28,130 bases of DNA from a virus. Its lineage: Duplodnaviria; Caudoviricetes. The stretch covers positions 1-28,130 of IMG/VR virus record IMGVR_UViG_3300010354_000472. One strand, written 5' to 3'. Shown one piece after another: positions 1,234 to 17,623 of the stretch. Within the stretch, counting starts at the first letter, position 1, and each line of letters opens with the position of its first letter. The notes below the pieces were generated by a model that saw nothing but the letters and a program-made list of their open reading frames with translations, had not been told where the DNA came from and searched no databases. Made by a program: the position numbers and the translations under genes.

Positions 1234-1241
1234 TCTAAATA
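1234..1241 (+). promoter_or_regulatory. Putative late promoter (TCTAAATA)
   Basis: Intergenic, 25 bp upstream of ATG 1267; matches the T4-like late motif. Confidence 0.6.
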
Positions 1242-1266
1242 ATTTCAGCAGTAGTTTTTTAAAGAA

Positions 1267-1902: not shown

Positions 1903-1970
1903 TTTGACATTTCGGGATAGCAACCCCGTAAAAAGTTCTGATTTTTCAAATCAGGAGCTAAAATGTCAAA
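1903..1970 (+). ncRNA. Candidate cis-regulatory RNA (three-way junction) covering the RBS and start codon of the 1963 ORF
   Basis: P1: TTTGACATTT (1903-1912) is the exact reverse complement of AAATGTCAAA (1961-1970, contains the ATG). P2: CGGG...CCCG (1913-1928). A-rich linker 1929-1933. P3: TTCTGATTT-TTC-AAATCAGGA (1936-1956, extendable to 1934-1959) contains SD AGGAG. Confidence 0.6.
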
Positions 1971-2202
1971 CTTATCCGTAGATAGAGACTCAAATTACAT
2001 GCATAAAATGTGGGGAACCACAAAATTGGTTACAGATTATGGTGTAAATCCTCAAAAAAGAGTGATTCAAGAAGTCATGCATGATTCAGCACCTCACCAT
2101 GATTTAAAAAAACAAACAGACCTTCATGAAAAAATTCGTAATGATGAAGATTACGATGATTGGGAATATGGTACTGAACCAACTTACGGTAAAAAGTGGT
2201 AA
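1963..2202 (+). CDS. Conserved-type cyanophage hypothetical protein, 79 aa, acidic C-terminus
   Basis: Strong SD AGGAG at 1953-1957; motifs VDRD..YM..MWGT..L.TDY and IRNDEDYDDWEYGTEP; directly upstream of gp25. Confidence 0.8.
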   Translation: MSNLSVDRDSNYMHKMWGTTKLVTDYGVNPQKRVIQEVMHDSAPHHDLKKQTDLHEKIRNDEDYDDWEYGTEPTYGKKW

Positions 2203-2219
2203 AAAGGTCGTATACATAT

Positions 2220-2227
2220 AATAAATA
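2220..2227 (+). promoter_or_regulatory. Late promoter (AATAAATA) for the gp25-gp6-gp7 unit
   Basis: ATAAATA at 2221-2227, intergenic, 15 bp before the gp25 ATG. Confidence 0.75.
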
Positions 2228-2242: not shown

Positions 2243-2641
2243 ATGATTAGGCTTTCTCGCAAATTTAAAGATATAAGTCTTTCTTTTGTAAGGAATCCTG
2301 TGACTAATGATATTCTTTCAATTAATGATGATGATGCGGTTAAAAAATCTGTTATCAATTTAGTTAGAACTAAAATAGGTGAGAGATTTTTTAACCCACT
2401 TTTGGGATCTAAAGTTGAAAATTCTATGTTTGAGTTGCAAACTCCAGAGATGGCATATTCTATGGAGTTAAGTATAACAACTTTGTTGAAAAACTTTGAA
2501 CCTAGGATTTCCTTATCCTCTGTTTTGGTTACATATCCTGATGATTCTAATGAAGTTAATGTAAGAATAGCTTACACTATTATTGGAATTCCTTCTCCAA
2601 CTCAAACTGTAGACTTCATACTACAACCAACTAGAGTCTAA
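2243..2641 (+). CDS. gp25: Baseplate wedge subunit gp25 (GPW/gp25 family)
   Basis: FKDISLSF..NPVTND, AVKKSVINLVRT..GERFFNP.LGS and FEPRI motifs; immediately upstream of gp6. Confidence 0.93.
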   Translation: MIRLSRKFKDISLSFVRNPVTNDILSINDDDAVKKSVINLVRTKIGERFFNPLLGSKVENSMFELQTPEMAYSMELSITTLLKNFEPRISLSSVLVTYPDDSNEVNVRIAYTIIGIPSPTQTVDFILQPTRV

Positions 2642-4516: not shown

Positions 4517-7500
4517 ATGTCAGAAATCAAAAGAGTAAAAATCAGCTCGATCATTGGTACACAAATTCCAGAATTCTTGTCTATAGAATCTCCTCTTTTT
4601 TCGGATTTTCTTAAGCAATATTACCATTCGTTAGAGTATCAATCAGGACCGATTGATATTATTTCGAACATTGCAAAGTATAAAAATTCTAAAACATTTA
4701 ACAATGTAGAGTTAACTGAAGAAACTGCTTTAACTTCTGATGTTTTATCTTTTGATGATGTCATAAATGTTGAGTCTACTAAAGGTTGGCCAGACTCATA
4801 TGGACTGTTAAAAATTAATGATGAAATCATTACTTATTTGTCTAAAACTGAAACTTCTTTCCAAGGTTGTATTCGAGGATTCAGTGGAATTGAAAACCTT
4901 GAATCCTTAGATAATCCAGAATTTTTAGTTTTTACCACAACCCAAGCCTCAGAACATTCTGATAACAGCGTAGTTCAGAATTTAAGTAATTTATTCTTAA
5001 TTAAATTCTTTGAAAATTTCAAATATGAGTTTTTGCCTGGATTTGAGTCCAGGGATTTCTATAAAGATATTTCTATTGAAAATGTAGTTTATAAGATTAA
5101 AGACTTATATAAGTCCAAGGGAACAGACTTATCATACAAGTTGTTATTTAAAATTTTGTATGGTACAGAGATTGAAATTATAAAACCACAGGATTACACT
5201 ATTTCGCCATCATCAAATTCATATTTTATTACAAAAAATATACTAGTAGAAAAAATTTCTGGTGGAAATCCAGTAGATATTAAAGGTAATTTTTTATTCC
5301 AAAATATAACTGGAATTGGTACAGTAAGTGCCTCGATCTTTAATGTTGAATATAGACCTGTAGCCGATAAAGAATTTTATGAGATTTCTCTTGACAGCAC
5401 ATCATTCAGTGGTAATTTTCAAGTTTCCGGTAAAACTAGAATACTCGAAGATATTCAGGTAAATAGTAATACTATTTTAGTTGATTCAACTGTAGGATTT
5501 GCTAACTCAGGAACTATTTTAGTAAAACCAAAAAATTCAGATTTTATTACTATTAGATATACCGGTAAAAATATTAATCAATTTACCGGAGTTACCAATG
5601 TAACTAAATTTTTAGATTCTGGACTTGATTTGATTGAAGAAAAATTTGCATTTAGTTATGTTGGAGTCGGAAATACTTCTAAGGTAAATTTTAGAGTTAT
5701 TAATGTAATTGATAATATTGATTTTTCAAAAACTTCAAATTTAAGAGTAGGTGATACTATTTCACTATCTGGATTTGGTAAAGATTTATATGATAGTTAT
5801 GAATTCAATAGTTGGATTTATAATATTCCAACAAATCATAGTATAAGAAGTATATCACAAATTGACGCTACAAAATTTAGAATTAATTTATTTGATAAAA
5901 TTTATTTTTATCAAAATGAAATTATTTTACTGATAGATGGTTTAGGAAATAAAACAGAAGCTGAAATTATATCCGTTGAATATTCAACTTCGGATTCAAT
6001 TAAAAAATATAGCAACAGAATTTTGGTTCAAGTCTTAAATTCTGCATCTTTTAATATTTTAAATTCAAAAATTGTAAGAAAGAAAATATACAAAACAAAT
6101 CATTATAGTAATTATTTCCCAAACTTGGAAAATATTCCCGCAGGAATTCAAAACACATATATTGATTCAGATGAAAAGTATTTCTATGTTACTTCGTCTG
6201 GTTTACCAAATTATACCATTTTTTCCACAGACAATAAAAATACAGTATCTACAGTAGGAACTTCCGTAACTGACACATTTAATGTTTCTAATCATAACTT
6301 GTTTAGTGGTGAATTAGTGTATTATCTACCAGAAACATCTTCTGGAATATTGACCGGATTATATTATGTTACAAAAATTGATGATAATAAATTAAAATTA
6401 TCATATAGTAAGTCAGACATCTTTTCAAAAAAATACATTGAAACCACTTCTTCAGTTGATGGCGATTCTTTATATAAATTTGGATATCAAAATAAAACTT
6501 TAAAACATCAAAAACTTCTAAAGAAATTCTACTTTGATAATAGTAAACCAAGAGAGTCTTTTGATGATTTAAATGAAAGAACAACTTTTAATAGAGAAGT
6601 TGGACTATTGATAAACGGGGTTGAATTATTATCACCTAATTTATTTGATGAAAACATTTATTATGGAAATGTGACATCAATTAATGTTACTAATTTCGGA
6701 AAAGATTATGATGTAATCGATGTTCCACCTTTAGAAATTAAAGATGAAACTGGCACAGGACTCAAAGCCCATTTAAATATTTCTGGTTCAGTTAGAGAAG
6801 TTAAAATATTAAATGCTGGATATGGATATCAAGAAAAACCAAAAATTACAATAACCGGCGGAAATGGTACGGGTTGTATATTGGACTCTAATTTTGTTAA
6901 AACTAGAGTTTCTGCAGGATTTAAAGCAGATTTAAATGTAAGTACAGTAGATAATACCATACAGTTTTTGAATACCATTCCTTTTGAAGATGGAGAAGAA
7001 ATTGTTTATGATTCTAACAAAAATAGTAATATACCTGGAATCGTAAATAACTCAACCTATTATGTTGGCATTCTTACAGATAATAAGATTAAGCTTTTTA
7101 ATACTAAGACAAATGCTCTTCAAAAAGTAAATGAAATCGATATTGTTGGCGTTTCATCTGGATTTCATTTTATAACAACATTAAAGAATAAAAATACTTT
7201 TACTAAAATTTATGTTAAGGAATCTGGTCAAGGATATTCCAATAGAAAAGTAAGAGTTCCATCTGTACTTTCTGGAGATAATAGAAGTGCCGGAATTAAT
7301 ACTTTTGATTCATATATTTTTGCAAAAAGTCATGGATTTAAAGATTTTGACCTTGTAAAATATTCTCATCAAGGTTCCCCCATAAGTGGATTATCTACTT
7401 CAATAAACTATTATGTTAAGGTTATTGATGTAAACAAATTTAGACTTTATGAAGCTGGAATTGGTACAACCTTAGATGATCAAAATTATATAAAAAATAA

Positions 7501-10500
7501 ATTTGTTAAATTTAATTCATTAGGGGTTGGAACTCACATTGTTGGATACCCCCCAATTCAAATACATGTAGAAGCAAAATTATCGATAGGATCTACTACT
7601 GTAATTAATACTGAACTAAAACCTATTGTACTAGGATCAATCGAAGATGTTTATTTGGAAGATGGTGGAATTGGCTATGGATGTACAAATATTATTAACT
7701 ATCACAGAAGACCTAATGTTGGAATTGCAAGTATAACTGCTGAAGCAATTTTGAAACCTATTATTATTGATGGATCAATCGTTGATGTTCAAATTATTAA
7801 TAGAGGAAAGGGATTCAGAGAAAATTCTGAAATTATAATCTATGGTGAAGGAAAATATGCTCAAATAGAACCCATCGTTCAGGATGGTAAACTAGTAAAT
7901 GTTAATATTGTTTTTGGTGGTATTGGGTACAAATCCTCAAATACTATACTTGTATTAAGAAATAGAGGACAAGATGCTAAGTTTTTAGCTAATGTAAAAG
8001 AATGGAAAATAAATCAGGTTGTAAAAAGTAAAAATACAATTTCTGAAGAAGATGATGGAATACTTTATCCAAGTAAAAATCCAAATTCAGAATTGCAGTT
8101 CTTTAATTTCTACGTTCCTAAAAATTTAAGATATCAATCTTCCGATAATTTTACGGATTCAAACAAAGAAAATACAGGTACTCTAAATCACTCTCCAATT
8201 TTAGGTTATGCGTATGATGGTAATCCAATCTATGGCGCATACTCATATGATACTACTAGTGGTGGATCTATAAGGAGGATGAATTCTAGTTATGTGTTAA
8301 ATCCTAATTTAACATTAGGGATAAGGCCTCCATCGTTTGAGAGTGGATTTTTTATTGATGATTATGAATATGATGGATCTGGAGATCTAGACCAACACAA
8401 TGGAAGATTCTGTATTACTCCAGAATATCCAAATGGAACTTATGCATATTTTTGCACTATAGATGTTAATGCATCAAATGAGGCTATTCCAAGATATCCA
8501 TATGTTGTAGGCCCATATTTCTATAATAAACCACTAACTGAGAATTTCTTACCATCATATAACCAGGATCTTGATATTTTTACTAAAAATCTTACCAGAA
8601 ATGTAGGACCTTATTACTTAAATAGATCAAGTTCATATTATGATTTAATTGATAAAGTTTCGGATGAGTATAAACAGGAGTTTTACGTAAGTTCAATAAA
8701 TTCAGGTAAAATAGAAGATGTTTCTATATTCTCTCCTGGTGATAATTATAAAATAAATGATCAAGTAGATGTAGACACATCAGATACTGGTGGAATCCAA
8801 TCAAATATAGTTGTAAGTGAATTAGATGGCAGAGAAATAGAGTCTTTCAGTTTATTTGAAGATTTAATTCCAAATGTAGAATTTTTCATAAGAAATCCAA
8901 ATACTGTTGTAAAAACAAGTTCTCCACATGGAATTAAGGACGGCCAACCAGTTTTAATAAGTGGAGTATCAACAATCACAGCATCCAAGTTTGAAGGAAT
9001 AAAATATGCACAAGTTGCAGAAAAAACTTCTCAATTACTTGATAATATTGGTACAACGGGTGTTACTGGATTATCTACTTTTATAACATTAAAAGATATC
9101 AATGGATTTAAAGTTAATGATTTTATCGGTATAGGCACAGAAGTATTATTAATCACCGATATCGATTCAAGAAGATCTGGATTTTATGTAAATAGACTCC
9201 AGAATACTGGAATCCATACTGTAGGAATTGACAATGTAGTTTTATTATCCAGAGAATTTACAATTCCTACGGGAGATGTGAAAGAAGTAACCTTTGAAAA
9301 CTACACGACATTTTTTGACCCTAAATTTTCCGTAGGTGTAGGTACAATCGGATCAACTCGCACAGTTGTTGGATTCGGAACCACATCTTTTGAAACTAAA
9401 TTTATACCTTCTAGAAGCATATATTTACCATCACATAAGTTTTACACTGGTCAACCATTGGTTTATAATTCTGGTTTTGCTGGAACATCACTGTATGTTA
9501 ATAATGTAGGTTCTGCGACATCTATTAAATTGTCGAATAATCAAATAGTTTATGCAGTAAATCTTGGAAAAGATTATATTGGATTATCTACGATAGGATT
9601 TACGAGTTCTACTGGAATCGGAACTAATTTAAATTCTCTAGAGTTTTGGGATCAAACTTTTGCTTATGGAGTTATTGGAGCCGCTCACTCATTAACTACT
9701 TTAAATCCTAAAATCACAGGAACTGTAGAAAAAATACTAGGAGTAGTAACCACCAAATCAAATCATAATTTGAGTAACGATGATATTATCACACTTAAAT
9801 TAACTACAGATTACAATGAAGTTATTAAGGTCGTTTTTGACCCAGTAAACAGAAAAGTTTTAATGAGAGAAATTAATTTTTCTAATACTGATGTTTCTGT
9901 ACCTGATAGTTCTATAGATATTTCTTCATATGATGGTAATATAGAAACTGGTGATAAAGTTGTCTATATTTCGACTTCTCCCATAAATGGACTTAATGGT
10001 TATGGTGTTTATTATGTTTTAAAAACAGATTTTAATTCTATAAGATTATGTCAGTATAGAAGTGATATTAATGAATCCAAATTTATTAATTTTTCTTCGG
10101 ATGGTGGAGTTGGTACTACTCACAAATTATATTTTGTTAATCCACAAATTTCATGTGTAAGAACTACAAAAATAGAATTTGATTTATCTGACAGCAGTTT
10201 GAACAATCTTGACTTACAGTTTTACTTTGATTCTAATTTTATTCAAAAAATTAATGAAAGAACCGGATTTTTCGTAAGTAGAGAAGGAGTTCCGGGAACT
10301 GCAGATTCTAAAATTATTTTAGATCTTTCCGCACAATTTTTCCCAATTTATTATAATCTGTTTCCTAAGGGATCATCTGACGAAAGTAAAAAACAAATAT
10401 CATCGGATGATGATGTAAAGTCTCATAACAAAATTTCTATAATAAATCATCAACTCAATAGTAAATTTAAAGTATCAGTTTCTTCTGATAAAACATTTTC

Positions 10501-13500
10501 TTTCTTTAATACTAAAAAGTTAACTTTTATTGAAACTAATATTATTATCCAAAGTGCCACGAAGTTTTCATATAAAACCACATCTACCAGTGCATTAGGC
10601 CCTATATCTAAATTAAAAATCAATTTTTCAGGCAGAGGTTACCGAAAATTACCTAGTATTAGAGGAGTACAAAGTGTTTCCGGTAAAAATGCAGTATTAA
10701 AACTAATATCTCCAAATGTGGGAAGAGTTGAGACCTTCAGTAGAGTTAAAGATGGTTTTGATTACCCAACAGATCCAACACTTTCACCATCTTTGAGTAT
10801 ACCAACCGTTATTGGAATAAAAGATATACGGACCATAGATTATATTGGAATCATTACTGGAGGTAGAAGATATAATACTTCACCAAAACTGATAGTAAAA
10901 AATGATACTAGTGGAATTGAACTTAATGCAAAAACATCTGGAGGATCTGTAACTTCCGTAGATATTATTAAAAATTCTACTTCATTATCTTCACCATTGG
11001 ATATTATCCCAATATATAATTCAAATGGTTATGAAATTGATGCAATTTCTGCAGTTGGTAATTTAGTAACATTAGAATTAACTAACAATCCTACTTTCAA
11101 CCCCTTCATATCTTCTGGATTCGGAAGGACTGATTATGTATATCCATTCAAAATTGGAGATAAAATTTTTATTGAAAATTGTAGATTAACTGATTCTACA
11201 TTAGATGAAGCTAATTTTAATTCATCTTCATATAATTATTCCTTCTTTGATGTTGTTGGCGTAAACACTAACAATAATACAGTAACTTATAATATGGCTG
11301 GAATTTCTACAGGTTCCTTTGGTACATATAGTGACGAGTTGAATTTGGGTATTGTTATTAACAAAAATGACATGCCCGAGTTTAGTATGGTATTGAAAGA
11401 TGACGTTAGTTACATTTCAAATGAAAAAGTATCTTCAGAGACATTTTTCGGTACAGTAATGGAAAATGGTTGGGATAATAAACTCAATCAAATGAGATTA
11501 AAAAATATTTCTGGTGAAATAAACATAGGAGATAAAATTTTTGGAGAAATATCTAAAATTAATGGTACAGTAGAATATTTTGATGTATTTAATTTGTATG
11601 CTACTTTGGGAGTTTCTAGAGATAAAACATCTTCTATAGATCTTTCTTCTGGTATTTTAAATGATTCCTTACAAAAAATTTCCGACAATTTCTATTATCA
11701 AAAATTCTCATATTCTATTAAGGGAAGTATTCCATATAATGTATGGAGAGAGTCCGTAAGGTCAATTGTGCATCCTTCCGGATTTAAAGAATTTTCTGAT
11801 TTAGAAATTTTAACCAAACCAACTTTAAATGAAGTTAATTTGGGAATTGCCAAATCTTCAAACATGAAGCCAAGATTGTCAGCAACAGATTCATTCACAT
11901 TCATTAATATTGATCAAACAGTACCTGTAAATCTCAAGACAAATTTTGCTAGAGTTTATGAAGAAGAATTATTGCCCGATGGATCTATTCAGAATGTATA
12001 CCTCGATGAAGGAATTGATTTAAGTTCTTACATTATTAATAAAACAAATAAGGTTGTTGAGATTGACGATATTAGTGATCAATTTGAAGGAAGTTCTTTA
12101 CAATTGTTGGACGAACGTTTTTCTGGTGCTTCGGATTTACTAGATGATAATAAAATTTTTATTCAGGAAGAGGTTGTAGGATTTGTTACTGCAAAATATC
12201 CAGGTATTAGTACAAACGTTGGTTGGAGCAAGACTGTATTCTACAATAGTGTTGGATATGTCATTGATGCAGTTTCTCATGATCTCAAATATCAATCTAA
12301 TAATGAATCTATCGAAGAGGGACTGAATTATTGGGCCGGACTTGGAACTAGTTATGTTGCAGGAGTATCTACTCAAACTATTGATGCATTTAAATATATT
12401 ATCGATTTATCAAAATATGTTATTAATAATGTTGGGGTTAAAACATCATACCAACTTGGCAATTCTGTTGGAATATCTTCTGTCATTTATAATAATATAA
12501 CAGGCATAACAACTGTTACAACTACAACCAGTCATGGATTATCAGCAACAAACACTAACTATGTTGTTCTAAAAAATATATCATTCTCATTTAATCCTGG
12601 AAGTGGAATAACCACTGCAATTTTCCCGAATTCTAGTCTAGCCACCGGACCTTTAACACTCGAAAAATATGTTTACAGAGTAGAAGTTGTTGATTCATTA
12701 AGATTTAGAATAAATGTAGGTCCATCAACCATTACTTACACTTATGTAAGCGGTGGTACTGCCCAGGGAGGTTTTATATCTACATCCCAATATCTAAATT
12801 ATGCAGTTTTACCTGATTTTGATTGCAGTCCAAATTACAGTGAAAACTGTTATGTAGATGTTTTCACATCGATTAGTGATTATGTGGGAATAATTACTAC
12901 AACTATTGGAATTGGTACAACAGCAAGTCCCAATTCTATAATATATCCATCTTTAGCTAAGGGTGGATCAGTTGTTGGATTAACCACATTTAAATTAAAA
13001 AATAAAGGAACTTCTTTATTCAAACATGAATTTTCTGGTAATGAAGTTGATATTGTTAATGATAAATTTATAATTTCAAATCACAATTTCCAGTCGGGAC
13101 AGGAATTGATATATTCATATTCTGGAGGAAGTCCAGTTGGAATTGCAACTACCTCTTATGTTTCTGGTGATGTTGACACACTATTGAATGTTTATAATTT
13201 TAGTGGAACTGCTATTTTAGAAAATGGTTATAATGTTGCAATTACAACGACTATTTCTGGAACAGTTCCAACAGGCCCAACTGGGACTATAAGTTATACC
13301 CAAGTGTTGGGAGTTAATACAACTGGACTTGGAACAAATGCATTATTTAATGTATTGATCTCTTATAACGGTGGTGGTGTGGCTATATCCACATCAATTA
13401 TTCCAACTTATGGTGGATATGGATATAACCTTGGGGAACAAGTTTCTATTTCTGGAACTCATTTTTCTGGAACAAGTCCTACTAATGATTTGAGATTTAA

Positions 13501-16500
13501 TATCTCAAAAACAGGACCAACGGTAATACAAGCCCAGGCAAATACAAGTTATTCTTCAGTTCCTTCTTCAGATTTAAGTGGAGCAACTTTTGATGTTTCT
13601 AGAGATTCAACTGGTGCGGTTACATATGTAAAAGTTTTAAATGGTGGGTCTAATTATACCAACAATTCTGTTATTTCTATAGCAGGAACTTATATTGGTG
13701 GAGTAGGTTCTAGAGATAATATATCATTTACGCCATTGGAACTTGGCGCCAAAGTTTTACCAACTTCAGTATTTGTTTATAAATTAAATGATAATGAGTT
13801 TAAACTTTCTGGATTATCTACAAGTATATTTTTCAACTTAACTGGAATAGGTACTGCAACACATTCACTATCATATAAAGAACCAAACTCTAGTGTAATT
13901 ATTACTATAGATGGAATAATACAGAAAGCTGTTTCTAGAAAATCACTAAATGTTTCTTTTGCTTCTAGTGTTTCTTCAGCATCAACAACAATAATAAGTA
14001 TTTCTTCTGGAATTTCATCTCTATCTACTAACGATATTATTAATATTGATAGTGAATATGTTTCTATTAAAACCATTGGCGTAACCTCTGCGAACCAAGT
14101 AGAAGTTGAACGCGGTTACTTTGGTACAGTTGCATCAGCACACACTGTAGGCGCTAGTGGAACGGTATTAGTCGGTGATTTTAATATCGTTGGAGATGTA
14201 ATCTATTTCGATCAAGCACCAAATGGAAAAATTGGACCAGTAGGGTTAGAAACCGGATCCACATTTGGAGGTAGAGTTTTTAGTAGAAAGTTTGATCCAT
14301 ATATTACGCAAGATAGGAACATTTTATTTGATGACATATCACTATCGTTTACAGGTATTGCAGCAACAGAATTTACTTTAAAATCTGGTGGACAAACTAC
14401 AAGTACCATTTTTAACAATGTAAACAGTTCTACTAATATTAATAATAATCCTATAGTTCTTATTAACAATGTATTCCAAAATCCAACAAGTGATTATACA
14501 GTAGATGGAGTTGGAACAAACGTAATTAAATTCTTATCAGGAACCCCAAATTCTGGAAAAATATCAAAAGTATCAATATCAACCAGTTATGGGTATGCTC
14601 CTAGAATTGGAGCAGCTGCTACTGTAACTGTTTCTGCTGCTGGTACTATTAGTAGTGTAATTGTTACTGGATCTGGATCTGGATATAGGTCTTCTCCAGT
14701 TGTTAGTATTGCATCTACTATTGGATTTGGAGCAAGTGTTGTAGCTACAGTGAGTGCTGCAGGCACAATTTCCGGATTTACTATTGTTAACGCTGGATCT
14801 GGATACACCACAACATCAAGACCAGAAGTTGTAATCGGAATACCAACTGGATATAGTAATCTCAGTTTGGGTTATACTGGCGGAACTTCTGGAGTTGGCC
14901 AAAAGGCAAAACTTACAGTGGAAGTTGGTATGGGTTCGAGTATAATAACATATAAGTTTGATGAACCTGGAGTTGGATATAAAGTTGGTGATAAACTCAC
15001 TCCTATTGGAATAGTAACTGATTCATCACTAAGTTTTGAGCCTTTTGTATTAACAGTTGAAGAAGTGCAAACTGATAGTTTCTTCGGATTTTATCCTGGA
15101 CAATTTGTACAATTTGATGATATTTCAGAATTCTTTAATGGATTTACAAAGAAATTTACACTCACAACTACTTTAAATGGAGTAAAACAAGTTCTAGGAC
15201 TGAGAGTTCCTGATGGAACTGATTTGGACATAACTAATAACATTTTCATATACATAAATGATATTTTACAAGTTCCGAATGTAGCATATAAGTTTTCAGG
15301 AACTAGAGTAATATTCACTGAACCACCGAAATCAGGATCTAAATGCGTTATTTTATACTATAGAGGTTCTTCTACTGATGTTGAATTAATTGACCCACCC
15401 AAAACAATTAAACCCGGAGATACTGTAACAATACAGGAGAATCCTGAAGATTTATTTGACATTTCGCAATTTGATAGAGTTGTTAAAAAAATTACTGCTG
15501 CCGATCAATTTGAAACTTTTAATTATTATTCAGTTGGTATTATTACTGATCCTACAAAAATTAGACCTCTTACTTGGAAGAAACAACTTAATGATACTGT
15601 TATCAATGGTTCTTTATATTCCAAGTCAAGACCGAATTTACAAAGTAATATTAAACCTACTGCAACTATCATTAAAAAAATTGAACCTACAGACACTGTA
15701 ATATATCTTGACAATGCATATCCACTATTTTCAGATTTAGATTCTCTTCCAGAAGATATAAGAGATGTATTAATATTGGAAAATAGATCTATTCAGGAAT
15801 CTCTAGGCGAATGTGTAGTATCATCAGCATCTACAATTTCATCAATTACTATTACTAGTGGTGGAATTGGATATGCTAATACGCAATCACCCAAAGTAAT
15901 CATTTCCGAGTCTTTAATTCTCAAAAAAGATCCTATTTTCAATTGGACTGGTGGTGTTGGACTATCGACTTCGTATGATTTGAAATCTATTAAATATAAA
16001 GATAAATTTATTTCTGTAGGAAATAACTCAGTGTATTCCACAAGTTTTGATGGAATAAATTGGCAAGTTTCTACAGTGGGATTTGGTCAATCTTCTAATT
16101 TTAATTCACTTGATGTAGTGGGAGTTGGAACAAGCAATTTCTTGGTTTCTGTAGGAAATCTTGGACAAGTGATAAAAGCCACAGATTATGGTAATACAAT
16201 ATCTTCATGGACACAAATTCCATTAGAAGAAGAGGTTTCAATCCCTGGTTTTGGAGCAGTCAGTAGAGTAAGTAGTGGATATACTGGCACATTTAATCAA
16301 ATTGTATATTCAAGTGTTACGGATACTTGGGTTACAGTTGGTGTAGCCGGATCAATATTTGTGGGAACAGGAGTAGGTACAGATTCACTTGTCAGTAGAT
16401 ATTCTGAAACTTTATCCGACCTGAATAGTGTATCTTTTGGAGTTGAATATTTTGTTGCTGTTGGTGATGATGGAATAATTAGAACGTCAAATAATGGAAA

Positions 16501-17623
16501 TATTTGGGAATTTGTAAGTTCTCCAGTTATTACCAATTTAAATAAGGTAATTTATGCTGATGGAAAATACGTTGCTGTTGGAGATTATGGAGTAGTTATT
16601 AGATCAGTAGATCGAACTTCTTATGAAATTATTCCAAATAATCTTGGAATTGTAAACATAACAAACATTTATTACAACTATGATTTTTATGTTATTGTTA
16701 CCGCCTTAGGTGATTTATATTATTCCTTTGATTTAAGTAATTGGATTTATAGATCAACATCACAAGCCAACTTTATCAATGATTTAATATTTGTAGATAA
16801 TGTTGGTCCCAATGGAAGGTATGTCGCCATAGGATCTGGAGCTACTGCAATATATGCAGAACCAGTTTATAACAGAGCTGAGGCTATTTCTAGTGTAACT
16901 TCTGGAGTTGTTACTTCCATACAGATTACTAATGGAGGGTTTGGTTATGACTTAAATAATCTACCACCAGTAATAATAGAACCAGATAGTTATAATACAG
17001 AATTAATTAGATCATTTAAAGTTGTTGGTGATCATGGAGTGATTATTGGAGTCACAACATATATTTCTGGAACTCCCGGAATTGGAACAACTTCTCCAAA
17101 GATTTCTTTTACACTAAAATCCGAACAATATGATAATAGTACTTTAGGTATTGGATATTCATCCCTTAATACCTTTGGAATCCTCAATAGTCAATTATCT
17201 AAGGGTGATTATTTTGTTATTACTGATAGTAATGTGGAAACCGGTGGGGACCTAGTGGGAATTACCACACTTCTTGGTGGTATGAGTAACTATCCAAATT
17301 CTAAAATTGGTATAGCAAAATCTTTTATAGATGGAGTTTATATTGTAGAAGATATAACCACACCATCCATTGGTATTGTTACTGTTACGTGCAACTTTGC
17401 TCCTATGGTGGATAATTATGTCAAAGTTTATACAAGAGGTTCAAACAATACTGGAGTTGGAACAAATAATTATTATGGCAAATATAGTTGGGCTAAGATT
17501 TATGACTATCAAAATAGAATTTTAGATAATCCAAAGACTTTTGAAGTTTTTAATGATAATGGAATTTCTGGAATTTCGTCTTCTCCGAAAATTATAAGGA
17601 CTAGAAGTGTAATAAGTAAGTAA
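4517..17623 (+). CDS. gp7: Giant baseplate wedge initiator (gp7-like), 4368 aa, multi-module
   Basis: Lies between gp6 and gp8. N-terminal QIPEF...FLKQYY and IKDLYKSKGT..SYKLLFKILYG, internal DNFYYQKFSYSIK...VHPSGFK.F motifs characteristic of cyanophage gp7; uninterrupted 13.1-kb ORF. Confidence 0.85.
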   Translation: MSEIKRVKISSIIGTQIPEFLSIESPLFSDFLKQYYHSLEYQSGPIDIISNIAKYKNSKTFNNVELTEETALTSDVLSFDDVINVESTKGWPDSYGLLKINDEIITYLSKTETSFQGCIRGFSGIENLESLDNPEFLVFTTTQASEHSDNSVVQNLSNLFLIKFFENFKYEFLPGFESRDFYKDISIENVVYKIKDLYKSKGTDLSYKLLFKILYGTEIEIIKPQDYTISPSSNSYFITKNILVEKISGGNPVDIKGNFLFQNITGIGTVSASIFNVEYRPVADKEFYEISLDSTSFSGNFQVSGKTRILEDIQVNSNTILVDSTVGFANSGTILVKPKNSDFITIRYTGKNINQFTGVTNVTKFLDSGLDLIEEKFAFSYVGVGNTSKVNFRVINVIDNIDFSKTSNLRVGDTISLSGFGKDLYDSYEFNSWIYNIPTNHSIRSISQIDATKFRINLFDKIYFYQNEIILLIDGLGNKTEAEIISVEYSTSDSIKKYSNRILVQVLNSASFNILNSKIVRKKIYKTNHYSNYFPNLENIPAGIQNTYIDSDEKYFYVTSSGLPNYTIFSTDNKNTVSTVGTSVTDTFNVSNHNLFSGELVYYLPETSSGILTGLYYVTKIDDNKLKLSYSKSDIFSKKYIETTSSVDGDSLYKFGYQNKTLKHQKLLKKFYFDNSKPRESFDDLNERTTFNREVGLLINGVELLSPNLFDENIYYGNVTSINVTNFGKDYDVIDVPPLEIKDETGTGLKAHLNISGSVREVKILNAGYGYQEKPKITITGGNGTGCILDSNFVKTRVSAGFKADLNVSTVDNTIQFLNTIPFEDGEEIVYDSNKNSNIPGIVNNSTYYVGILTDNKIKLFNTKTNALQKVNEIDIVGVSSGFHFITTLKNKNTFTKIYVKESGQGYSNRKVRVPSVLSGDNRSAGINTFDSYIFAKSHGFKDFDLVKYSHQGSPISGLSTSINYYVKVIDVNKFRLYEAGIGTTLDDQNYIKNKFVKFNSLGVGTHIVGYPPIQIHVEAKLSIGSTTVINTELKPIVLGSIEDVYLEDGGIGYGCTNIINYHRRPNVGIASITAEAILKPIIIDGSIVDVQIINRGKGFRENSEIIIYGEGKYAQIEPIVQDGKLVNVNIVFGGIGYKSSNTILVLRNRGQDAKFLANVKEWKINQVVKSKNTISEEDDGILYPSKNPNSELQFFNFYVPKNLRYQSSDNFTDSNKENTGTLNHSPILGYAYDGNPIYGAYSYDTTSGGSIRRMNSSYVLNPNLTLGIRPPSFESGFFIDDYEYDGSGDLDQHNGRFCITPEYPNGTYAYFCTIDVNASNEAIPRYPYVVGPYFYNKPLTENFLPSYNQDLDIFTKNLTRNVGPYYLNRSSSYYDLIDKVSDEYKQEFYVSSINSGKIEDVSIFSPGDNYKINDQVDVDTSDTGGIQSNIVVSELDGREIESFSLFEDLIPNVEFFIRNPNTVVKTSSPHGIKDGQPVLISGVSTITASKFEGIKYAQVAEKTSQLLDNIGTTGVTGLSTFITLKDINGFKVNDFIGIGTEVLLITDIDSRRSGFYVNRLQNTGIHTVGIDNVVLLSREFTIPTGDVKEVTFENYTTFFDPKFSVGVGTIGSTRTVVGFGTTSFETKFIPSRSIYLPSHKFYTGQPLVYNSGFAGTSLYVNNVGSATSIKLSNNQIVYAVNLGKDYIGLSTIGFTSSTGIGTNLNSLEFWDQTFAYGVIGAAHSLTTLNPKITGTVEKILGVVTTKSNHNLSNDDIITLKLTTDYNEVIKVVFDPVNRKVLMREINFSNTDVSVPDSSIDISSYDGNIETGDKVVYISTSPINGLNGYGVYYVLKTDFNSIRLCQYRSDINESKFINFSSDGGVGTTHKLYFVNPQISCVRTTKIEFDLSDSSLNNLDLQFYFDSNFIQKINERTGFFVSREGVPGTADSKIILDLSAQFFPIYYNLFPKGSSDESKKQISSDDDVKSHNKISIINHQLNSKFKVSVSSDKTFSFFNTKKLTFIETNIIIQSATKFSYKTTSTSALGPISKLKINFSGRGYRKLPSIRGVQSVSGKNAVLKLISPNVGRVETFSRVKDGFDYPTDPTLSPSLSIPTVIGIKDIRTIDYIGIITGGRRYNTSPKLIVKNDTSGIELNAKTSGGSVTSVDIIKNSTSLSSPLDIIPIYNSNGYEIDAISAVGNLVTLELTNNPTFNPFISSGFGRTDYVYPFKIGDKIFIENCRLTDSTLDEANFNSSSYNYSFFDVVGVNTNNNTVTYNMAGISTGSFGTYSDELNLGIVINKNDMPEFSMVLKDDVSYISNEKVSSETFFGTVMENGWDNKLNQMRLKNISGEINIGDKIFGEISKINGTVEYFDVFNLYATLGVSRDKTSSIDLSSGILNDSLQKISDNFYYQKFSYSIKGSIPYNVWRESVRSIVHPSGFKEFSDLEILTKPTLNEVNLGIAKSSNMKPRLSATDSFTFINIDQTVPVNLKTNFARVYEEELLPDGSIQNVYLDEGIDLSSYIINKTNKVVEIDDISDQFEGSSLQLLDERFSGASDLLDDNKIFIQEEVVGFVTAKYPGISTNVGWSKTVFYNSVGYVIDAVSHDLKYQSNNESIEEGLNYWAGLGTSYVAGVSTQTIDAFKYIIDLSKYVINNVGVKTSYQLGNSVGISSVIYNNITGITTVTTTTSHGLSATNTNYVVLKNISFSFNPGSGITTAIFPNSSLATGPLTLEKYVYRVEVVDSLRFRINVGPSTITYTYVSGGTAQGGFISTSQYLNYAVLPDFDCSPNYSENCYVDVFTSISDYVGIITTTIGIGTTASPNSIIYPSLAKGGSVVGLTTFKLKNKGTSLFKHEFSGNEVDIVNDKFIISNHNFQSGQELIYSYSGGSPVGIATTSYVSGDVDTLLNVYNFSGTAILENGYNVAITTTISGTVPTGPTGTISYTQVLGVNTTGLGTNALFNVLISYNGGGVAISTSIIPTYGGYGYNLGEQVSISGTHFSGTSPTNDLRFNISKTGPTVIQAQANTSYSSVPSSDLSGATFDVSRDSTGAVTYVKVLNGGSNYTNNSVISIAGTYIGGVGSRDNISFTPLELGAKVLPTSVFVYKLNDNEFKLSGLSTSIFFNLTGIGTATHSLSYKEPNSSVIITIDGIIQKAVSRKSLNVSFASSVSSASTTIISISSGISSLSTNDIINIDSEYVSIKTIGVTSANQVEVERGYFGTVASAHTVGASGTVLVGDFNIVGDVIYFDQAPNGKIGPVGLETGSTFGGRVFSRKFDPYITQDRNILFDDISLSFTGIAATEFTLKSGGQTTSTIFNNVNSSTNINNNPIVLINNVFQNPTSDYTVDGVGTNVIKFLSGTPNSGKISKVSISTSYGYAPRIGAAATVTVSAAGTISSVIVTGSGSGYRSSPVVSIASTIGFGASVVATVSAAGTISGFTIVNAGSGYTTTSRPEVVIGIPTGYSNLSLGYTGGTSGVGQKAKLTVEVGMGSSIITYKFDEPGVGYKVGDKLTPIGIVTDSSLSFEPFVLTVEEVQTDSFFGFYPGQFVQFDDISEFFNGFTKKFTLTTTLNGVKQVLGLRVPDGTDLDITNNIFIYINDILQVPNVAYKFSGTRVIFTEPPKSGSKCVILYYRGSSTDVELIDPPKTIKPGDTVTIQENPEDLFDISQFDRVVKKITAADQFETFNYYSVGIITDPTKIRPLTWKKQLNDTVINGSLYSKSRPNLQSNIKPTATIIKKIEPTDTVIYLDNAYPLFSDLDSLPEDIRDVLILENRSIQESLGECVVSSASTISSITITSGGIGYANTQSPKVIISESLILKKDPIFNWTGGVGLSTSYDLKSIKYKDKFISVGNNSVYSTSFDGINWQVSTVGFGQSSNFNSLDVVGVGTSNFLVSVGNLGQVIKATDYGNTISSWTQIPLEEEVSIPGFGAVSRVSSGYTGTFNQIVYSSVTDTWVTVGVAGSIFVGTGVGTDSLVSRYSETLSDLNSVSFGVEYFVAVGDDGIIRTSNNGNIWEFVSSPVITNLNKVIYADGKYVAVGDYGVVIRSVDRTSYEIIPNNLGIVNITNIYYNYDFYVIVTALGDLYYSFDLSNWIYRSTSQANFINDLIFVDNVGPNGRYVAIGSGATAIYAEPVYNRAEAISSVTSGVVTSIQITNGGFGYDLNNLPPVIIEPDSYNTELIRSFKVVGDHGVIIGVTTYISGTPGIGTTSPKISFTLKSEQYDNSTLGIGYSSLNTFGILNSQLSKGDYFVITDSNVETGGDLVGITTLLGGMSNYPNSKIGIAKSFIDGVYIVEDITTPSIGIVTVTCNFAPMVDNYVKVYTRGSNNTGVGTNNYYGKYSWAKIYDYQNRILDNPKTFEVFNDNGISGISSSPKIIRTRSVISK
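6179..8515 (+). other. Discontinuous YHYH-like domain within gp7
   Basis: Three separated segments: YVTSSGLPNY (~6185), GLLINGVEL (~6602), and HSPILGYAYDGNPIYG...DLDQHNGRFCITPEYPNGTYAYF...YPYVVGP (8189-8515). Confidence 0.6.
6293..13110 (+). repeat. Dispersed protein-level repeats in gp7 (H-[GNK]-[LFI]-x-x-G-type beta modules, FCCH-like)
   Basis: His codons at 6293 (HNLFSGELVYY), 7331 (HGFKDFDLVKY), 8927 (HGIKDGQPVLI), 9434 (HKFYTGQPLVY), 9764 (HNLSNDDII), 12533 (HGLSATN) and 13082 (HNFQSGQELIY); several are followed by YYV...D...[FI]xL. Confidence 0.6.
15941..16860 (+). repeat. Beta-propeller (BNR/Ycf48-like blades) inserted near the gp7 C-terminus
   Basis: About seven repeats of [LF]N.V.[YF]...[FY]V[AST]VG..G.I..S.[DN]...W, e.g. 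FISVGNNSVYSTSFDGINW, YFVAVGDDGIIRTSNNGNIW, YVAVGDYGVVIRSVD, YYSFDLSNW. Confidence 0.7.

Follow-up and report, generated by a model that had tools for sequence, protein, structure and literature searches.

The window (the whole stretch of DNA analysed here, 28,130 nucleotides) is a 28-kb fragment of a T4-like cyanomyovirus and constitutes the entire record for this genome. In a blastn comparison with isolate phages, its nearest isolate was Synechococcus phage S-SCSM2R, followed by other Kyanoviridae. The region of interest is a 71-nt spacer between an ORF of 175 aa and a small ORF of 79 aa, which is followed by the gp25 baseplate wedge gene (Table 1). Upstream neighbours vary among phages and include purM, SAM decarboxylase, a 2OG-Fe(II) oxygenase region, and hypothetical genes. 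On the far side of the ORF at the gp6 position, a 4368-aa ORF (4517-17623) follows directly; it encodes a giant structural protein, rich in repeats, in the place that gp7 has in T4.

Table 1. Genes, RNA helices, and promoter-like words around the leader of the small gene (window positions)
Feature	Position	Strand	Remarks
CTAAATA late-promoter-like word	1236..1242	+	nearest upstream of the motif
Upstream ORF, 175 aa	1364..1891	+	phrog_10325 match, E 6.7e-23; ends 12 nt 5′ of P1
P1 5′ arm, TTTGACATTT	1903..1912	+	clade-specific; outside the conserved motif
Match to covariance model R1	1911..1965	+	75.5 bits; sole R1 match in the window
P2 hairpin, CGGGATAGCAACCCCG	1913..1928	+	4-bp stem CGGG/CCCG and 8-nt loop
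P2 loop, ATAGCAAC / AUAGCAAC	1917-1924	+	positions 1-4 and 6-8 invariant across the family
Linker, TAAAA	1929-1933	+	
Linker with invariant AAAAGUUCU	1929..1939	+	AAAAGUUCU at 1931-1939; its 3′ part is the P3 5′ arm
P3 bulged hairpin	1934..1959	+	3′ arm contains SD AGGAG, 1953-1957
P1 3′ arm, AAATGTCAAA	1961..1970	+	exact complement of the 5′ arm; covers ATG 1963-1965 and codons 2-3
Small ORF, 79 aa	1963..2202	+	acidic; no Pfam family, weak phrog_1414 match only
ATAAATA late-promoter-like word	2221..2227	+	ends 15 nt before the gp25 start
gp25 baseplate wedge gene	2243..2641	+	PF04965, E 7e-13; phrog_261
ORF, 624 aa	2641-4515	+	gp6 annotated here in relatives

An earlier note on this DNA had described the spacer as an RNA of three helices, and P1, P2, the linker, and P3 were all found as described. 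The three-way junction they form was both the minimum free energy (MFE) and the centroid structure of the 68-nt element (ViennaRNA). Its predicted energy was −20.3 kcal/mol (z −3.65), while shuffles averaged −9.16 (SD 3.05) and 1 of 200 was as good. The same fold was recovered in a 121-nt context (−24.4 kcal/mol; z −2.60), where 3 of 200 shuffles were as good. P1 places 10 perfect pairs over the AUG. P3 takes the SD into its 3′ arm, an arrangement which had been proposed and which is corroborated by the covariation of P3 described below. The single-base bulge of P3 is G1954 in the MFE fold, G1954 and G1955 being interchangeable, and the spacing between SD and AUG is an ordinary 5 nt.

Blastn of the region against isolate phages returned short matches of up to 89% identity. 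These matches start at P2 and extend into the small gene, the flanks being otherwise dissimilar between phages. The P2-linker-P3 motif occurred at the same place in all six isolates recovered by blastn and also in Syn9, at 58,102-58,165 of that genome. As read from the six isolates, its consensus consists of GGGAUAG(C/U/G)AACCCC, a few bases, AAAAGUUCUG, a hairpin, GGAG, and AUG. A pattern scan of IMG/VR yielded at least 119 stretches with the motif, with an estimate of about 2300 in the collection. Since such a scan fixes part of the sequence, two locus sets were gathered independently of the motif. In the set anchored on gp25, 37 of 42 loci carried it about 300 to 380 nt upstream of gp25; one of the remaining loci had too little upstream DNA, and four, with gp25 only 43 to 44% identical, were without it. 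In the set anchored on the small protein, it was present at 80 of 80 loci, 62 in the strict form and 18 with small variants. A covariance model, R1, built from the A2 alignment of 45 diverse sequences, matched 80 of 80 small-protein loci and all 12 added gp25-anchored loci with a gp25 identity of at least 67%, and 0 of the 4 distant gp25 loci.

In each of the eight complete genomes where R1 matched, exactly one strong match was present. Weak secondary R1 matches (E 0.03 to 0.7) were dismissed as noise; one of them, in Syn9, lies antisense within petE. No similar hairpin was found elsewhere in the genomes, and the sole extra pattern match, seen in S-BM3 upstream of gene 43, is stemless and falls within an ORF, and was taken as chance rather than as a second copy. 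The motif is dispensable, as seven of eight cyanomyovirus isolates sampled evenly down the gp25 ranking were without it genome-wide. The only carrier in this sample was ACG-2014f.

Bacterial and archaeal genomes (596 Gb) gave 98 pattern matches, about the chance number by our own estimate. Of these, 22 had an R1 E value of 0.01 or better, and 10 scored at least 42 bits. All 10 strong matches are followed by the same small phage protein family, which identifies them as phage contigs in metagenome-assembled genome (MAG) bins, and a host or bacterial origin of the motif was rejected on this ground. The genome contigs with both motif and small phage gene (L297, L302, L306, L317, L318, L321, L326, L329, L355, and L358) belong to bins of Chlamydiae, Woesearchaeota, Flavobacteriales, Acidimicrobiaceae, and others, and also to a Synechococcus lacustris assembly. 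Those in bins of unrelated taxa are likely mis-binned cyanophage DNA.

Both hairpins of the motif covary. P2 always has 3 to 6 pairs (138 unique sequences), and its stem occurs as CGGG/CCCG, AGGG/CCCU, GGAG/CUCC, AGAG/CUCU, and GGUG/CACC. Compensating changes among the isolates turn GGG/CCC into GGAG/CUCC and CUGAUUU/AAAUCAG into CUGUUUU/AAAACAG. In the seed alignment A2, 90.5% of cells were paired, and the covariation score was 0.26 versus 0.097 in shuffled alignments (0 of 500 as high), these figures, like those for A3 below, being descriptive, as the shuffles ignore phylogeny. The independent set A3 (93 matches, 59 distinct sequences) was gathered without reference to the motif. Here, 94.6% of cells were paired, compared with 34 to 60% when the partners were slid by 1 to 3 columns. 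One P2 pair appeared as GC in 38, CG in 13, AU in 5, and UA in 3 sequences, and a second one as AU in 38, GC in 20, and CG in 1, neither with a single unpaired cell. A P3 pair was UA in 39, AU in 18, and GU in 1, and pair 1940-1952 of P3 covaries A-U with U-A. What makes P2 and P3 convincing is the comparison with slid partners, together with the variety of pair types. Furthermore, the lower P3 stem has a conserved U-G pair whose counterpart on the opposite strand would be a mismatched A-C, and this is evidence for an RNA of the sense strand. A coding explanation of the motif was rejected, since stops in all three frames leave no open frame across it in 136 of 194 contexts.

Alongside the covarying stems are bases that do not change at all. 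The loop AUAG-N-AAC (7 of 8 positions; AUAGNAAC) and AAAAGUUCU were invariant in 59 of 59 distinct sequences, as was AAAAGTTCT; the invariant bases themselves give no covariation signal. The linker varies in length among sequences, A3 columns 20-25 being gapped. P3 itself was found in three layouts. The SD lies within the 3′ arm in one of them, as in the window. In another, CUGUUU...AAACAG closes a loop containing the SD, and the 3′ arm abuts the AUG. In the third, of which Syn9 has a related version, the linker and the P2 3′ arm pair with an AGAGAGG-type SD. In all three layouts, the invariant segment pairs with the ribosome-binding region. The covarying P2 stem, the near-invariant loop, the A-rich linker, and the invariant run paired with the ribosome-binding region are all directly observed features, and the covariation in the alignments argues firmly that this last pairing is made. 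The stability of P3 is only about −6 to −11 kcal/mol, so the occlusion of the SD may be mild.

The earlier note had expected conservation and covariation of the whole element in homologs, with P1 co-varying with the first codons and the P2 loop and linker staying fixed. The P2 loop (7 of 8 positions) and AAAAGUUCU are indeed fixed, and P2, linker, and P3 are widespread with covarying stems; P1, however, is confined to the clade of the window and shows no covariation with the first codons. Its GACATTT core occurs in 16 of 194 contexts, all from this clade. Helices of at least 7 bp joining the start region to the 14 nt that precede P2 were found in 29 of 194 contexts, versus 11.6 expected from shuffled flanks. 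Fifteen of these 29 are the GACATTT/AAATGTC of the window's clade (the sixteenth context, L146, was scored on another helix), and the other 14 are at chance level. Within the clade, no compensatory change was seen in P1, and one member (L135, GACTTTT) has an uncompensated mismatch. The P1 3′ arm is fixed by the Met-Ser-Asn codons, which are also present in clades without P1. Across the 28 kb of the window, there are 24 inverted pairs with an exact seed of at least 9 nt within 80 nt. As a perfect inverted repeat of 10 bp, P1 is not unusual in this A+T-rich window and stands out only by its location. The three-way junction was therefore given up as a conserved unit, and P1 is, on the evidence of the alignments, a clade-local add-on outside the conserved motif.

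P1 may nonetheless have a local use, e.g., as a link between the upstream cistron and initiation. The P1 5′ arm of many clade members consists of the last codons of the upstream ORF ((D/E)-I-S-G), and the stop TAG falls in the P2 loop, so that a terminating ribosome would sit on P1 and P2. A TAG stop of the upstream ORF inside the P2 loop was seen in the window relatives L128, L133, L137, L147, L177, and L216. In the window, the upstream ORF stops 21 nt earlier and in another frame; in the window's own lineage, the P1 5′ stretch is non-coding and the helix is at its longest (10 bp).

The motif always precedes one protein family, which comprises 139 unique proteins of 46 to 98 aa in a single blastp cluster. 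The family is modular. A common N-terminal part, SPVDRDxNYMxxMWGT..LITDY, is joined to one of two alternative C-terminal parts, …IRNDEDYDDWEYGTEP or …RPCGGxxGFDDFVERWHE (window 1963-2202, loci L007-L255). Some members have the C-terminal part only, without the N-terminal module, and keep the same RNA. SynMITS9220M01 and Bellamy have weak relatives of the small protein before gp25 without the RNA motif, and, by eye, Syn1, P-RSM4, and S-SSM7 also seem to keep such a relative before gp25 without the RNA. The proteins are acidic, with a median pI of 5.0 and a median net charge of −5 (−4 in the window protein), and the net charge is positive in 7 of 138 proteins. The AlphaFold model of the 79-aa protein is poor (pLDDT 65, pTM 0.25). 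Both the acidity and the poor model speak against the suggestion that the 79-aa product regulates its own translation.

A late-promoter consensus of cyanomyoviruses has been reported as NATAAATA (PMC2984593), and its 3′ six bases, TAAATA, were used here as a search word. Of 194 unique contexts, 102 have TAAATA just upstream of P2, ending 2 to 7 nt short of its first pair (5 to 6 nt in 88). In Syn9, CATAAATA is followed by eight bases and then by GGGAUAGGAACCCC. Transcription in these 102 contexts would begin at P2, which would prevent P1 from forming. In T4, late transcription begins about six bases downstream of the late-promoter element, and with this geometry P2 would be the 5′-terminal hairpin. 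Starts at P2 would thus rest on the promoter words together with the T4 geometry. In the other 92 contexts, including the window, the motif comes directly after the upstream ORF without such a promoter. Neither TAAATA nor ATAAAT occurs between 1237 and 2220 on the + strand of the window, in agreement with the earlier observation that no late promoter lies inside the element. Going by the promoter words, the CTAAATA upstream of the 175-aa ORF is likely the start of a polycistronic late transcript carrying the motif, and gp25 would have a late start of its own at the ATAAATA before it.

A sigma-70-like scan found no + strand site in the region, and the total of 11 sites versus 8.0 expected is no excess. 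A sigma-70 promoter built on the TTGACA of P1 was considered and rejected, the only such site being on the − strand (1969 to 1941, with AAAAAT as second hexamer). This − strand site (TTGACA, 17 nt, AAAAAT) points antisense out of the first codons of the small gene and is probably a by-product of the Met-Ser-Asn codons. In the metatranscriptome X1, 23% of the sampled words were present; only short contigs, mostly relatives below 95% identity, fell on the window, and no transcript starts or ends were seen in them.

The spacer had been regarded as a structured RNA outside the known motifs, and Rfam bears this out, with no family at gathering score anywhere in the window. There was also no Rfam family at E up to 0.5 in 20 diverse motif loci and no riboswitch family at E up to 10 on 59, 141, or 601 nt. 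The best likeness was to RF03003 GP20-b, at 17.7 bits versus a gathering score of 36.2. The second hairpin and the A-rich tail of the GP20-b model align base for base with P2 and the linker, whereas its first hairpin maps to the non-conserved flank, where the A/U pairs are weak and all relatives differ in sequence. GP20-b is a candidate cis-regulatory RNA upstream of gp20 (portal), whereas the present motif always lies before the small gene that precedes gp25. None of five complete motif-bearing genomes had GP20-b above the cut-off. The two are set apart by model score and gene context. A search for GP20-b instances in IMG/VR with its consensus pattern gave 48 matches, all coding or chance and without the hairpin, and these were discarded. 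Rfam matches to a snoRNA and to TYMV were likewise put down to low-scoring chance likenesses to AAGUUCUGA. In the literature, 10-mers of the motif gave only unrelated primers among the matches listed. A 2023 catalogue of structured RNAs from IMG/VR mentions Synechococcus in 38 table rows (PMC10690425). The motif, compared with that catalogue by its tables, may already be among its unnamed candidates.

Several T4 systems invite comparison. According to an account of T4 RNA control, the gene 43 operator of T4 and RB69 combines a hairpin with a sequence overlapping the ribosome-binding site, its loop is -UAAC- (-CAAC- in a SELEX variant), and the AA and AC bases matter for binding (PMC3014915). 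The motif shares with it a hairpin upstream of the start, a single-stranded sequence running into the ribosome-binding site, and NAAC in the loop, and both are single-copy and gene-specific. The motif differs in preceding a small late gene by gp25, in having NAAC at the 3′ end of the loop, and in having P3, a second hairpin with the SD. In S-BM3, no such hairpin was found upstream of gene 43. By analogy, the gene 43 operator is the closest mechanism in print to the motif. The same account describes RBS-occluding hairpins of T4 genes e, soc, 49, and I-TevI, which are relieved by an internal late promoter (PMC3014915). Here too, the SD and/or AUG is predicted to lie in a helix on longer transcripts, but the window has no late promoter inside the helices. 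In the relatives, the promoter is upstream of P2, so that the late transcript keeps P3 and only P1 would be removed. The T4 scheme of a late promoter within the hairpin does not fit P3. A third T4 case is the split-SD hairpin of gene 25, which lies between the SD and AUG of that gene and enhances initiation (PMC3014915). Like the motif, it is an RNA structure at a translation start near gp25 in a T4-type phage, but the motif serves the gene before gp25.

Taken together, we favour the reading that T4-like cyanophages have a conserved leader RNA of two hairpins, that 1911-1965 is one copy of it, and that this leader, similar to a translational operator, probably sets the translation of the small gene; we put the probability of this reading at about 0.55. 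The pairing with the ribosome-binding region would hold translation initiation down. A trans-acting factor (probably a protein) could dock on the invariant loop and linker and would then stabilise or open the pairing at the ribosome-binding site, in a manner resembling the hairpin-plus-RBS operator of T4 gene 43. It had been argued earlier that P2 and the A-linker, not being needed for occlusion, should be recognised by something, and the invariant loop and AAAAGUUCU amid covarying stems fit this idea. With a late promoter immediately upstream, the late mRNA would begin with P2 as its 5′-terminal hairpin, which might also protect that mRNA. In the window's clade, the element would be inside a polycistronic mRNA, with P1 predicted to pair the end of the upstream cistron with the AUG, and P1 would tie initiation at the small gene to ribosomes finishing the upstream ORF. 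The term ‘switch’, in the sense of two states, found no support in this analysis. The finding is narrower than first claimed, the motif being one more phage control element of a familiar kind, though an uncatalogued one.

Other explanations have to be weighed against this operator-like leader. The one we take most seriously, while still judging it unlikely, is a plain expression leader without a trans-acting factor, in which P2 is a stabiliser, the linker a standby or S1 landing site, and P3 a mild brake. The leader of phage T7 gene 10 and the 5′ hairpin of ompA are parallels. TAAATA stands 2 to 7 nt before P2 in 102 of 194 contexts, where P2 would begin at or beside +1, and in the commonest layout an A-rich linker stays unpaired, both as this explanation would have it. 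However, a stabiliser needs a stem and not a fixed loop, and here phages with only about 40 to 70% gp25 identity agree in 7 of 8 loop positions and throughout a 9-nt run. Moreover, in the 92 of 194 contexts without a promoter before P2, the window's among them, the hairpin is internal to a longer mRNA. An element acting at the DNA level was considered as well. It would be a junction between the variable upstream genes and the baseplate module, promoting recombinational shuffling, or else a promoter part, and T4-type phages have promoter/stem-loop cassettes as a parallel. The changing upstream neighbours, the fixed motif and downstream module, and a nucleotide identity far above that of the flanks would suit it. 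Yet compensatory changes keep the pairs, the conserved U-G pair is strand-specific, and on the sense RNA the invariant bases are those of loops and single strands. Only about half of the contexts have a late promoter next to the motif, and the sigma-70-like scan has no + strand site here. We consider such a DNA-level role very improbable.

A pseudoknot deserves separate mention. In general form, the invariant loop, the A-tract, and the GUUCU run would make a ligand- or protein-triggered pseudoknot that competes with the SD hairpin, which we regard as quite improbable. The narrower version, a small ligand-sensing switch, appears a shade less probable again, though slightly ahead of the DNA-level element. 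In it, UAG or AAC of the loop would pair with GUU/CUG of the invariant run, with the A-tract along the P2 stem in the topology of the smallest riboswitches, and this fold would compete with P3 and free the SD. An invariant loop, an A-tract, and a run that doubles as the P3 5′ arm do fit mutually exclusive folds, and the CUG to CUA variants are compatible with both pairings. Against this, no riboswitch family was found even at E up to 10 on 59 to 141 nt, the proposed pairs never vary and hence do not covary, the regulated gene has no link to any metabolite, and the linker length varies (the gapped A3 columns). The full model of the earlier note, a three-way-junction switch that locks SD and AUG under control of the 79-aa product bound to P2 and the linker, is in our view the least probable of all. 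In its favour, MFE prediction gives this junction in the window, and motif and small gene always go together in the motif-bearing lineages (139 unique proteins, one cluster). Nevertheless, P1 is clade-specific, lacks covariation, and partly coincides with coding sequence; the 79-aa product is acidic and mostly without a confident fold; and proteins lacking the N-terminal module keep the RNA, while weak relatives of the protein exist without it.

T4-like cyanophages are among the most abundant marine viruses, and to our knowledge little is known about post-transcriptional control in them. As a short, very widespread, single-copy motif that covaries cleanly and keeps its loop invariant, the element is an unusually strong candidate for a specific control point based on RNA and protein (or RNA and ligand). 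This candidate control point sits at the entry to the baseplate genes, and its carriers in culture include Syn9 and S-SRM01. If the pseudoknot were true, it would be a new and very small class of switch, by which a signal from the infected cell would gate the first baseplate-module gene in thousands of cyanophages of marine and fresh waters.

Three isolates show local peculiarities at this site. In S-BM3 (L006, 747-1436), the annotated purM ORF runs through the whole motif and stops at a TAA just 5′ of the ATG of the small gene. In S-SSM7 (L411, about 440-488), a terminator-like hairpin with a T-run occupies the motif site, directly 5′ of the GTG start of the small gene. In S-SKS1 (L004, 1549-1700), the small gene is unannotated and has an intact leader motif before it; its translation stops early, after 48 aa, and the tail is unrelated, as if a frameshift had occurred.
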